From: a virus
Lineage: Duplodnaviria > Heunggongvirae > Uroviricota > Caudoviricetes
Reading direction: 5' to 3' (one strand)
Virus record (IMG/VR): IMGVR_UViG_2703718859_000008
Length of the DNA: 6,524 nt
Position numbers and translations under genes: made by a program. The notes under the pieces are model-generated. The model had not been told where the DNA came from. It searched no databases and saw only the letters and a list, made by a program, of their open reading frames with translations. Below are positions 2,819-5,111 of the stretch, one piece after another (positions within the stretch are counted from its first letter, which is position 1; each line of letters starts with the position of its first letter).

Positions 2819-3368
2819 AGGTTTCCCCCTGGCGAATACGGGCGGCAAATACAGCAACACAACCGGACGGGCAACGGCTACGCGCTTCGCGTTCCGTCCA
2901 GGCGGTGACGTGGATGATTTGATGGTCTGACGCGCCAAAGATGATAAAGCGCCAGAGAAAGGCGGTTTGAGAATGTACAAGGGTAGGGATAGTAGCCATG
3001 TTGGCAGCCTCCTCAGTGTGGTTAAGATAACCGCCACCGGAAACGCCAATTTCGCTGGTGGCGGACTGTACAGGGTTGGCGTAACCGGACACTGAAGAAA
3101 CCGGCGCGGATTGCTCCGCCCCCGTACAGCCCACCATTGATAAGGTGTGACTATGCGGCACAAAAAAACACGCGGGGCGCGTGTTATGCGCTTCAGTTTT
3201 GCCCAGGACGCCAATCCCGGCACCCGTTTTATGAGGTGCGCGGGAATCATAGCTATTTTCGACACTGGCGATCAACTGGTTTTTTTCTCCGATATTCAGG
3301 GCCAGAAAACGCCACACAAAGGCCGTTTGTGTGTGTACAAGGTGTGGTATATGATTTACGGCAACCAT
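2808..3368 (-). CDS. hypothetical protein with two paralogous small modules (IPxLVHxQTAFxWRF motif twice) joined by a Gly/Ser/Ala-rich linker; possible in-frame internal start at 2999
   Basis: 186-aa ORF, first gene after the repeat-bearing intergenic region. GAGGAG Shine-Dalgarno 6 nt upstream of ATG 3368. A second in-frame ATG at 2999..2997 is preceded by GAGGAGG and begins the second copy of the motif. Differences between copies fall largely at third codon positions, consistent with protein-level conservation. Confidence 0.5.
   Translation of the reverse strand: MVAVNHIPHLVHTQTAFVWRFLALNIGEKNQLIASVENSYDSRAPHKTGAGIGVLGKTEAHNTRPACFFVPHSHTLSMVGCTGAEQSAPVSSVSGYANPVQSATSEIGVSGGGYLNHTEEAANMATIPTLVHSQTAFLWRFIIFGASDHQIIHVTAWTEREARSRCPSGCVAVFAARIRQGETYAQ
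3161..3184 (-). terminator. intrinsic-terminator-like hairpin plus T7 tract inside the coding region of the 186-aa ORF
   Basis: On the minus strand, 8-bp stem AACACGCG/CGCGTGTT with a 3-nt loop, followed by a run of T (plus-strand A7 at 3161-3167). In frame it encodes NTRPACFF. Confidence 0.3.
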
Positions 3369-3562: not shown

Positions 3563-3865
3563 ATGTCCGTATACAAAAACGCAAAATCTCAAATGACAAC
3601 GCTCAGAGTCCCTCACGATGTCATGCAAGGCATGGAATCCGTTAAGCTGGACGGCGAGAGCAATGCAGGATTTATCGTAACCGCCATGCGCGGAGAAATA
3701 GCACGCCGCCAGGCAGAAGGCAGCGGAGAAAATCCCCTTGTGTCTTCACTGGATGCTCTGGCTAAGGTCGAACAAATCGGCATCAAAGCAGCGGAAGAAA
3801 TCGGGCAACTTGTCACCGTTGCACGCGAAGAACTCCAGCGTCGCAAGGCCAAAGAAGCGGAATAA
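3563..3865 (+). CDS. small putative DNA-binding regulator (100 aa; possible ribbon-helix-helix-like N-terminus), function unconfirmed
   Basis: Only convincing plus-strand ORF. GGTGA about 8 nt upstream of the ATG. N-terminal MTTLRVPHDV segment followed by predicted helices resembles a beta-strand-then-helix DNA-binding fold. Charged helical C-terminus. Followed by a plus-strand terminator. Confidence 0.5.
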   Translation: MSVYKNAKSQMTTLRVPHDVMQGMESVKLDGESNAGFIVTAMRGEIARRQAEGSGENPLVSSLDALAKVEQIGIKAAEEIGQLVTVAREELQRRKAKEAE

Positions 3866-3943: not shown

Positions 3944-3972
3944 TTTTCCCATTGGCGACCGCCCCCGGTCGC
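3944..3972 (+). terminator. rho-independent terminator for the 100-aa gene
   Basis: Stem GGCGACC (3944-3950), loop GCCCCC, stem GGTCGCC (3957-3963), followed by TTTGTTTTAT. Located between convergent genes (100-aa gene on plus, alpA-like gene on minus). Confidence 0.55.
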
Positions 3973-4000
3973 CTTTGTTTTATGTGTCATATGCTCCCCT

Positions 4001-4225: not shown

Positions 4226-4260
4226 AAAAAAACGTCCTCGAACGTTGCCGAACGAGGACG
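4226..4260 (-). terminator. intrinsic terminator after the int/264-aa transcript; hairpin also sequesters the alpA Shine-Dalgarno
   Basis: Minus strand reads CGTCCTCG-TTCGGCAACGTT-CGAGGACG followed by TTTTTTT and then immediately the alpA ATG. The inner part can extend the stem around a GCAA tetraloop. The only Shine-Dalgarno-like sequence for alpA (GAGGA, about 9 nt upstream) is the 3' arm of the stem. Confidence 0.55.
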
Positions 4261-4287
4261 ATTCTAGACGGTGGTAAAACGCCGTTT

Positions 4288-4320
4288 GTGTGATATCACA
4301 CTATCGGTACGTGATATCAC
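4288..4320. promoter_or_regulatory. pair of palindromic operator-like sites (GTGTGATATCACAC and GTGATATCAC)
   Basis: Perfect 14-bp palindrome at 4288-4301 and perfect 10-bp palindrome at 4311-4320, centres about 21 bp apart. The second overlaps the stop codon of the 264-aa gene. Core resembles the repeats at 3445-3543. Confidence 0.5.
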
Positions 4321-5111
4321 TTTTGACGTTTCGGAACGTCACCAATATCACGCCCCAAATATTTCTGCCATGTCTGCCTGTGAGTGCTGGGTAGCTCAAC
4401 CCCTCTTTGCGCAGCGATAACCTCTATCATTTCTGCAATTTTGGTTACTGGTGTCTCCTCCAAATCCACATCCTGCATCTCAGGAATCAGTTTTATGAGT
4501 GCAGGTATTATCTCGGCTTTTTTAGCTATGGTTTTCGGAGATTCTCTATCACCTCCGCCATATACAGGTTTTGCCGCATAATCAAAATTCGAAAGTTCAT
4601 TTTCGAAAACGACTAATCTTTCCTCCGGAATAAACAACCCCCAAATTCCAGCTAAATATAGCTTTTTGTAATGTGCTTTTATGGTGTAAAGATGTTGTGG
4701 TTTGACGTCAACAGCATTGTGCGGACCTGATAATTCAACATCCACAAGATACTGCGACGGAATTGCAAAAAAACCCTTTAAATAATTTGCATACCAACCT
4801 GGCAGTCTGAATATCCCTGTGTCGGTATCCTCAACATAATCATCATTGTAATGAAGATAAGATATCTTATACATATCACTATCTATTACATTTCGTTCTT
4901 TTATCTGTTCAACATAATAACTTTCGCTATCATCTTCAAAAATCACTCTAGCAGAGCACTTATTCTCACTTATTAATAAGTCGTTTTCACCAATATATGC
5001 ACATATTTCAAGTCTATTGGTTGCCCCAAGATGTAGAATATCATCCACCGTGCAGCCGAGTTTTTTTGCTGCCATAGGCAAAGTATAATATACACGAGGA
5101 AAATCTTTCAT
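4317..5111 (-). CDS. uncharacterised 264-aa protein with N-terminal HTH-like segment (excisionase/AlpA-like HTH_17 pattern) and unknown C-terminal domain; AT-rich cargo gene
   Basis: AAGGTGG Shine-Dalgarno 6-7 nt upstream. ATG overlaps the integrase stop (ATGA). N-terminal YYTLPMAAKKLGCTVDDILHLGATNRLEI resembles a helix-turn-helix. Region about 4400-5100 is visibly more AT-rich than the rest of the window. Confidence 0.7.
   Translation of the reverse strand: MKDFPRVYYTLPMAAKKLGCTVDDILHLGATNRLEICAYIGENDLLISENKCSARVIFEDDSESYYVEQIKERNVIDSDMYKISYLHYNDDYVEDTDTGIFRLPGWYANYLKGFFAIPSQYLVDVELSGPHNAVDVKPQHLYTIKAHYKKLYLAGIWGLFIPEERLVVFENELSNFDYAAKPVYGGGDRESPKTIAKKAEIIPALIKLIPEMQDVDLEETPVTKIAEMIEVIAAQRGVELPSTHRQTWQKYLGRDIGDVPKRQK

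Follow-up and report, generated by a model that had tools for sequence, protein, structure and literature searches.

A Hairpin Abutting alpA in a Satellite Island

In a 6,524-nt stretch of viral DNA (IMG/VR record IMGVR_UViG_2703718859_000008, hereafter the window), we found that the regulatory gene alpA is directly preceded by a 28-nt RNA hairpin whose 3' arm holds the Shine-Dalgarno (SD) sequence of the gene and which is followed by seven T residues. On balance, it appears somewhat probable that this hairpin insulates alpA against read-through from the upstream operon, which consists of int and a gene coding for a 264-aa protein, while alpA's own promoter starts transcription within the hairpin. 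A terminator, an anti-SD arm and probably a promoter discriminator are packed here in 35 nt.

The window is identical (100%) to a sequence of Escherichia coli S19-141, where it adjoins rcnR. It forms the left end of an island and carries int, the 264-aa gene, alpA, icd-like genes, a DUF4222 gene and a RepA helicase gene; past the window edge, the island continues with capsid, protease, portal, head-closure and connector genes. Judged by this gene organization, which is as described in 10.1101/2022.09.08.507074, the island is a capsid-forming PICI-like satellite. The tyrosine integrase gene int (406 aa as annotated, positions 6328-5108, minus strand) is the first gene of a co-directional unit, and the 264-aa gene (5111-4317, minus strand) overlaps it by 4 nt. 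Both point toward alpA on the same strand, and the hairpin lies 57 nt past their operon. The 264-aa protein had no significant match in Pfam, PHROG or NCBIfam, nor by Foldseek against the PDB, and it showed no similarity to DUF6387.

The alpA gene (4225-4001, minus strand) codes for a 74-aa winged-helix regulator of the Phage_AlpA family (PF05930, E 2e-16; phrog_2790; PDB 8c3t, E 6e-8). In PICIs, AlpA turns on its own promoter and alpA transcription is helper-induced (PMC6092414), and AlpA overexpression causes a runaway replication that is harmful to the cell (PMC6092414; PMC11773190). A preliminary description of this locus linked alpA to excision; AlpA of PICIs activates the entire induction program (PMC6092414) and is the self-activating master switch of these Gram-negative phage-inducible chromosomal islands.

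Other RNA elements were observed elsewhere in the window. Rfam models matched a C4 antisense RNA (3141-3054, minus strand, 77.6 bits) and an isrK RNA (3239-3163, minus strand, 66 bits), together with weak matches to c4-a1b1 targets within 3054-3252 (minus strand). These RNAs adjoin the icd-like genes, an arrangement that resembles a phage P1 immI-like RNA immunity module in a satellite. On the plus strand, a terminator-like hairpin (3954-3973) composed of GGCGACCGCCCCCGGTCGCC then TTTGTTTT sits between alpA (3' end) and a convergent ORF of the YlcI/YnfO family (3563-3865, plus strand), and an icd-like pseudogene (3990-3613, minus strand) overlaps that region.

Structure and Energetics of the Hairpin

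The hairpin occupies positions 4260-4233 of the minus strand and comprises a G+C-rich 8-bp stem and a 12-nt top. Its 5' arm, CGTCCTCG (4260-4253), is the anti-SD sequence, of which CGTGGACG is an altered form that exemplifies disruption of the arm. The top (4252-4241) reads TT-CG-GCAA-CG-TT; from this sequence, the stem is crowned by a small internal loop (TT at 4252-4251 and 4242-4241), two further pairs (CG at 4250-4249 and 4244-4243) and a GCAA loop (4248-4245). The 3' arm, CGAGGACG (4240-4233), includes the SD GAGGA (4239-4235), located 9 nt before the start codon. As previously described, this is the sole purine-rich run ahead of the alpA ATG that could bind the ribosome. A T7 run (4232-4226) forms both a U-tract and the spacer between SD and start codon, and the ATG (4225-4223) follows without interruption. 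A near-identical island (L006/L265) differed in having T6 where the window has T7, a homopolymer length polymorphism affecting both the terminator tail and the SD spacer.

With eight contiguous pairs, six of which are G-C, and two inner pairs, the hairpin alone had a predicted free energy of -17.0 kcal/mol. When positions 4330-4215 were folded with RNAfold (116 nt, -39.1 kcal/mol, z = -4.3), exactly the same hairpin was present in the minimum free energy (MFE) and centroid structures, and none of 200 shuffled sequences reached an equal stability. The preliminary description, which had placed hairpin, T7, ATG and SD-containing 3' arm at 4226-4260 and had suggested folding this same segment, was thereby confirmed by both sequence and fold. 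The standard terminator scan misses the hairpin because its loop limit is 8 nt. A custom scan that required 8 or more contiguous pairs (5 or more of them G-C), a loop of 3 to 14 nt and 6 or more T among the 8 following positions detected three sites in the window compared to 0.053 per dinucleotide shuffle, making such sites approximately 50-fold rarer in shuffles, and any site of this quality appeared in just 13 of 300 shuffles. No Rfam family matched the hairpin when 4226-4330 was scanned at E ≤ 1.

By its anatomy, the element is equipped with the full set of features of a strong intrinsic terminator. Its d'Aubenton-Carafa-type score (d = +31.7) was the highest among the 36 hairpin variants described below. 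A terminator role on the plus strand was discarded, as the tail there is ATTCTAG.

In read-through RNA, which contains both arms, the SD was predicted to be fully paired (unpaired probability 0.0) and its opening cost 15.0 kcal/mol. For RNAs starting at 4254 to 4252, the opening cost fell to 2.3-2.6 kcal/mol and the SD bases had unpaired probabilities of approximately 0.1 to 0.9 each. Some S1-dependent initiation might still take place on read-through RNA by way of the U-rich, single-stranded spacer.

Conservation and Covariation Among alpA Relatives

We compared the regions preceding AlpA homologues drawn from viral, metagenomic and genomic sources, which yielded 54 distinct upstream contexts, of which 31 were non-redundant, and 36 different variants of the hairpin. 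The hairpin preceded genes whose AlpA products were 57 to 100% identical, and all 36 variants had the 8-bp stem, the 12-nt top and an SD-like 3' arm. This arm took forms such as CGAGGGC, CGAGAGC, CGGGAGC, CAGGAGC or CAAGGGC, with SD-like runs such as GAGG, GGAG or GAGAG, and 7 nt separated the hairpin from the start codon in almost all variants. No such hairpin was found in another large alpA clade (N-terminus MREINEDRV...) nor in EcCIEDL933. A scan of viral contigs with the CGTTCGGNNACGTTCG pattern retrieved types A and B, which were already known, and otherwise only chance matches, and a single-protein search of genome contigs added only four distant, uninformative loci.

Pair counts were made on an essentially gap-free alignment (A2). 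The cells of this alignment were paired at 90%, compared to 33 to 44% when the 3' partner was slid by one to three columns. Both sides had changed at 7 of the 10 pairs, and compensatory changes were present in 43 cells against 15.5 ± 5.5 in shuffles, none of which (0/500) reached 43. RNAalifold independently predicted the same eight pairs, six of them with double changes. Among the non-Watson-Crick cells, 23 were G·U or U·G and only 4 were A·C or C·A, which indicates selection on the hairpin as alpA-sense RNA and fits neither a palindrome acting in DNA nor an RNA of the opposite strand.

The U-tract was far less constant than the stem. It was absent or weak in 22 of the 36 variants and the terminator score was above zero in only 14, with conserved stems being followed by tails such as TTAACCA, TCACTTA, TACATAA or CCTATCA. 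It was the E. coli and Citrobacter types, the window among them, that had the terminator property. Since the U-tract is often lost while the stem is kept, SD occlusion at a constant distance from the start codon is the conserved property of the hairpin, and termination would be an extra one.

The top of the hairpin was conserved in its own manner. Most variants had AA/AA in the 2x2 internal loop and the window type had UU/UU, while the pairing combination AA/UU was never seen. Written as DNA, the top (4241-4252, minus strand) has the form TTC-N6-GTT in the window type, whereas most relatives (L177-L184, L231-L343) have AAC-N6-GAA. These two forms are reverse complements, so that the window type looks as if a palindromic element had been inverted. 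The insulation we propose below gives no account of this conserved internal loop or of the AAC-N6-GAA top.

Some relatives (L267, L178, L324 and others) have stems starting with TG, so that the base of the stem holds an ATG that shares the alpA reading frame. As a result, 86-aa 'AlpA' proteins (P0002, P0003) are reported by gene callers, while some relatives carry a stop codon just ahead of the real ATG. The 86-aa calls are probably an annotation artefact, a tiny upstream ORF being the less likely alternative. As a leader ORF or alternative start, this ATG was rejected: the window and several relatives do not have it, stop codons come after it in others, and no SD lies ahead of it.

Candidate Promoter, Start Site and Operators

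The hexamer TAGAAT (4266-4261, minus strand) abuts the stem and is a putative -10 element of an alpA promoter. Upstream of the stem, the 31 non-redundant contexts were unrelated in sequence save for this hexamer and for family-specific palindromes. The stem-abutting hexamer followed the pattern nAnAAT, with A at position 2 in 24, at position 4 in 27 and at position 5 in 30 of the 31 contexts and T at position 6 in all of them. It was also the only positional peak of a -10 position weight matrix (PWM) upstream of the stem, with a mean of +0.67 bits compared to approximately -5 almost everywhere else. As a -10 element it is weak: position 1 was T in 10 of 31 contexts, position 2 was T instead of A in 7, and just two contexts scored above 3 bits. 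Its conservation could partly arise from pairing between the A-tract and the U-tract, or from the ATG found in many relatives. Tract pairing as the sole cause was ruled out by variants that keep AAT without a T-run. The window had no recognizable -35 element and the promoter scan listed no promoter at this position, so that transcription from here would require an activator. With TAGAAT as the -10 element, alpA transcription is predicted to start at C4254 or G4253, the two innermost bases of the 5' arm.

Published Cappable-seq data provide an analogue. In EcCIEDL933, alpA transcripts began 44, 36 and 27 nt ahead of the start codon and followed an AACAAT -10 element (PMC10469882 supplement 6), and a start site was also detected for int of this related island. 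The alpA starts were found in most growth conditions, which indicates basal promoter activity without helper phage. In the corresponding region (L346 21860-21930; EDL933 1681860-1681930), we noted a GTG start codon and AACAAT/CACAAT -10-like hexamers. We did not retain these data as a direct start-site test: strain EDL933 is without the island at cspD/clpS, its 'AlpA' starts at 318131/318134 belong to a P4-like element, its region around 1.11 Mb is unrelated, and EcCIEDL933 itself (1.68 Mb) carries an alpA allele without the hairpin, which limits its use to that of an analogue.

Two palindromes lie upstream of the hexamer in the window. With T4261, the last T of the hexamer, numbered -7, the proximal GTGATATCAC palindrome (4299-4290, minus strand) is centered at -40.5 and the distal one (4320-4311, minus strand), which overlaps the stop codon of the 264-aa ORF, at -61.5. 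Operators placed near -40 and -61 in this numbering match the arrangement classically seen at regulated sigma-70 promoters. A proximal-type palindrome was present at -38.5 to -40.5, mostly at -39.5 or -40.5 and once at -38.5, in each of the 17 contexts in which the upstream gene codes for a homologue of the 264-aa protein (31 to 63% identity). A distal-type palindrome was present at -61.5 or -60.5 in 11 contexts, with a proximal-distal spacing of 21 bp in most and 22 bp in one. In contrast, no context with a DUF6387 gene upstream had a GTGATATCAC-type palindrome.

For each family of upstream genes, a distinct palindrome occurred at a constant spacing from the hexamer. In other contexts, we observed TCACCG-N3-CGGTGA at approximately -34 and GGAAnTTTCC at approximately -39.5, as well as a -35-like GTAACA at 18-bp spacing (TGTAACA at approximately -34), all positions being read by eye from the alignment. 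Upstream genes other than that for the 264-aa protein, namely DUF6387 and others (e.g., in loci L051, L178, L322, L232, L316), were paired with different motifs. These associations suggest that regulator-operator pairs are swapped as modules ahead of a constant hairpin-alpA unit. The strict co-occurrence of the 264-aa gene with GTGATATCAC operators over the alpA promoter makes its product a candidate induction regulator and a candidate DNA-binding regulator of that promoter.

Proposed Insulation of alpA and Alternative Explanations

We propose that the hairpin treats alpA transcripts according to where they begin. RNA started upstream would carry both arms and form the stem, and the stem with its U7 tail, as found in the window island, is predicted to end most read-through at approximately 4226-4230. 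In RNA that escapes termination, the SD would be locked in a stem costing approximately 15 kcal/mol to open and would not be translated. The own promoter would use the stem-touching TAGAAT as its -10 element and start near G4253, the last base of the 5' arm, under control from the palindromes near -40 and -61, probably through the 264-aa protein and/or AlpA. With a start inside the 5' arm the stem cannot form and the U7 no longer trails a terminator hairpin, so this mRNA, which lacks the anti-SD arm, would be neither terminated nor occluded and would expose a free SD in a 28-nt leader. The 5' arm would then have a dual role, as promoter discriminator in DNA and as anti-SD in read-through RNA, and the outcome would be a positive-feedback alpA switch shielded from leaky upstream transcription.

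The covariation demonstrates that the hairpin forms in some transcript, and this could be alpA's own mRNA if it starts at or upstream of the stem base. The hairpin would then act as a translation throttle and/or a 5' stabilizer, and as a throttle it would set a high threshold for AlpA positive feedback, like the SD-sequestering stem of IS200 tnpA. We consider this unlikely. IS200 does provide a precedent, with a constitutive SD-sequestering stem in its own 5' UTR (PMC4513863), EcCIEDL933 alpA leaders reach 44 nt, and a few contexts have upstream -10-like hexamers that would place the start at the stem base (TATAGT in L234, ATAAAT in L316). However, no such signal is conserved upstream of the abutting hexamer across the 31 contexts, and starts at the stem base would move the operators to approximately -30 and -51, away from the classical positions. 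A fully paired SD with an opening cost of approximately 14-15 kcal/mol would nearly abolish translation of a gene needed for induction, and RNA of the window type would terminate itself at U7. The inverted repeat might instead matter as duplex DNA, bound over +1 to +28 by a dimer of AlpA, Int or a repressor, the RNA hairpin being incidental. Its 8-bp arms adjoin a regulated promoter, its 12-nt center contains GAAC (or GTTC) repeats 10 bp apart, the reversal of that center in the window type resembles a DNA-level inversion, and AlpA-family proteins are Xis-like DNA binders. The excess of G·U over A·C is, however, expected only for sense-strand RNA, the arms vary by many compensatory pairs while the invariant residues of AlpA stay, and the constant 7-nt distance to the ATG together with an obligatory SD-like 3' arm are features of translation. 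A DNA site as the reason for the repeat is thus very improbable.

The preliminary description read the locus as a switch operated by attenuation or antitermination and by unmasking of the SD. Extended to the satellite, this would mean that upstream transcripts stop or are occluded at the hairpin until a factor of the helper or the island antiterminates or opens the stem, giving the first AlpA molecules and then autoactivation. Its observations on terminator anatomy and on SD occlusion in read-through RNA stand, whereas the regulated switch appears quite improbable to us. Strong terminator anatomy does lie directly ahead of the ATG, the island has other RNA control elements in its C4 and isrK-like RNAs, and the reporters used for Gram-negative PICIs measure transcription through alpA (PMC6092414). 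However, no competing antiterminator pairing was predicted in the MFE or centroid structures, and since the upstream sequences are unrelated in the 31 contexts, no conserved alternative structure is possible. Neither an Rfam match nor a leader peptide or ORF start was found in the window leader. Many relatives keep the hairpin and lose the T-run, so termination is not what is conserved, and the hexamer with its fixed operators suggests an own promoter whose transcripts never form the hairpin. In published work, alpA of PICIs has its own AlpA-activated, helper-induced promoter (PMC6092414). Hairpin-less alleles (EcCICFT073-like, EcCIEDL933) are helper-induced all the same. There is only a slim chance that a factor encoded or induced by the helper (antiterminator, RNA chaperone, helicase or sRNA) gets transcription past U7 and opens the stem to yield the first AlpA, with autoactivation locking the state; if true, a helper-opened hairpin would be the long-sought, RNA-based induction mechanism of this Gram-negative PICI clade.

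The antiterminator named AlpA in Pseudomonas aeruginosa was also considered as a lead for antitermination and rejected. It is a far larger, Q-like protein of eight helices, with C-terminal helix-turn-helix contacts up to residue 142 and an N-terminal ring in the RNA exit channel (PMC9371919). The 74-aa AlpA of the window is unrelated to it in sequence, which leaves the shared name a coincidence. The sole significant PDB sequence relative of the window protein was chain 8c3t (73 aa) rather than any of the P. aeruginosa AlpA complexes, and a literature search for a publication on 8c3t retrieved nothing relevant.

The comparison also locates the likely alpA promoter and its operators for a large satellite clade in Enterobacterales, and it makes the variable gene between int and alpA a candidate regulator. 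The element may also serve as a compact natural insulator part for engineered PICI 'drones'.

Comparison With Known Systems

The hairpin resembles intrinsic terminators in its -17 kcal/mol stem, its U7 tail, its A-rich upstream partner (AGAAU) and its position after a co-directional operon. It differs from canonical ones in that the U-tract abuts the ATG of the next gene and the 3' arm is the SD of that gene, and in that relatives keep the stem and often lose the U-tract. As in dual-acting riboswitches and attenuators, one stem affects both transcription and translation, but no sensor, alternative fold or leader peptide was found here.

The transposase genes of IS10 and IS50 are reportedly shielded from outside transcription by fold-back of RNA onto the ribosome-binding site (RBS). 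The proposed likeness is as follows: an upstream segment of the read-through RNA pairs with the RBS, the own promoter starts past this segment and only the own mRNA is translatable (both predicted features in our case), which would keep a dangerous self-mobilizing function silent whatever the flanking transcription. In the island, by contrast, the protected gene codes for a satellite transcription activator instead of a transposase, the impinging transcription would come from the element's own int operon, the stem of the window is also a full intrinsic terminator by anatomy, and the start is placed inside the stem by inference. IS200 combines a terminator with an SD-sequestering stem-loop, in that a Rho-independent terminator just upstream of the transposase start (approximately nt 40) at its left end blocks impinging transcription (PMC4513863). 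Two hairpins (nt 12-34 and nt 69-138) are used there and the SD stem is part of the own mRNA (PMC4513863), whereas a single 28-nt hairpin would do both in the window and the own mRNA is predicted to be without it.

Among PICIs, EcCICFT073 and EcCIMP1 (PMC6092414, PMC11773190) as well as EcCIEDL933 (PMC10469882) have the same order, with int upstream and alpA as the first gene of the induction operon. The alpA leaders of EcCIEDL933 are short (27-44 nt) and their -10 element is of the nAnAAT type (AACAAT), like the window hexamer. Unlike the window, the described PICI alpA alleles have no SD-containing hairpin, and in EcCIEDL933 the spacer between int and alpA measures 364 nt and contains a separate hairpin of terminator type after int. 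Neither a hairpin nor a terminator at alpA is mentioned in the papers on these three islands. Although missing from Rfam and from the PICI literature searched, the element appears to be an insulation device of a known sort, compressed into a single 28-nt stem.
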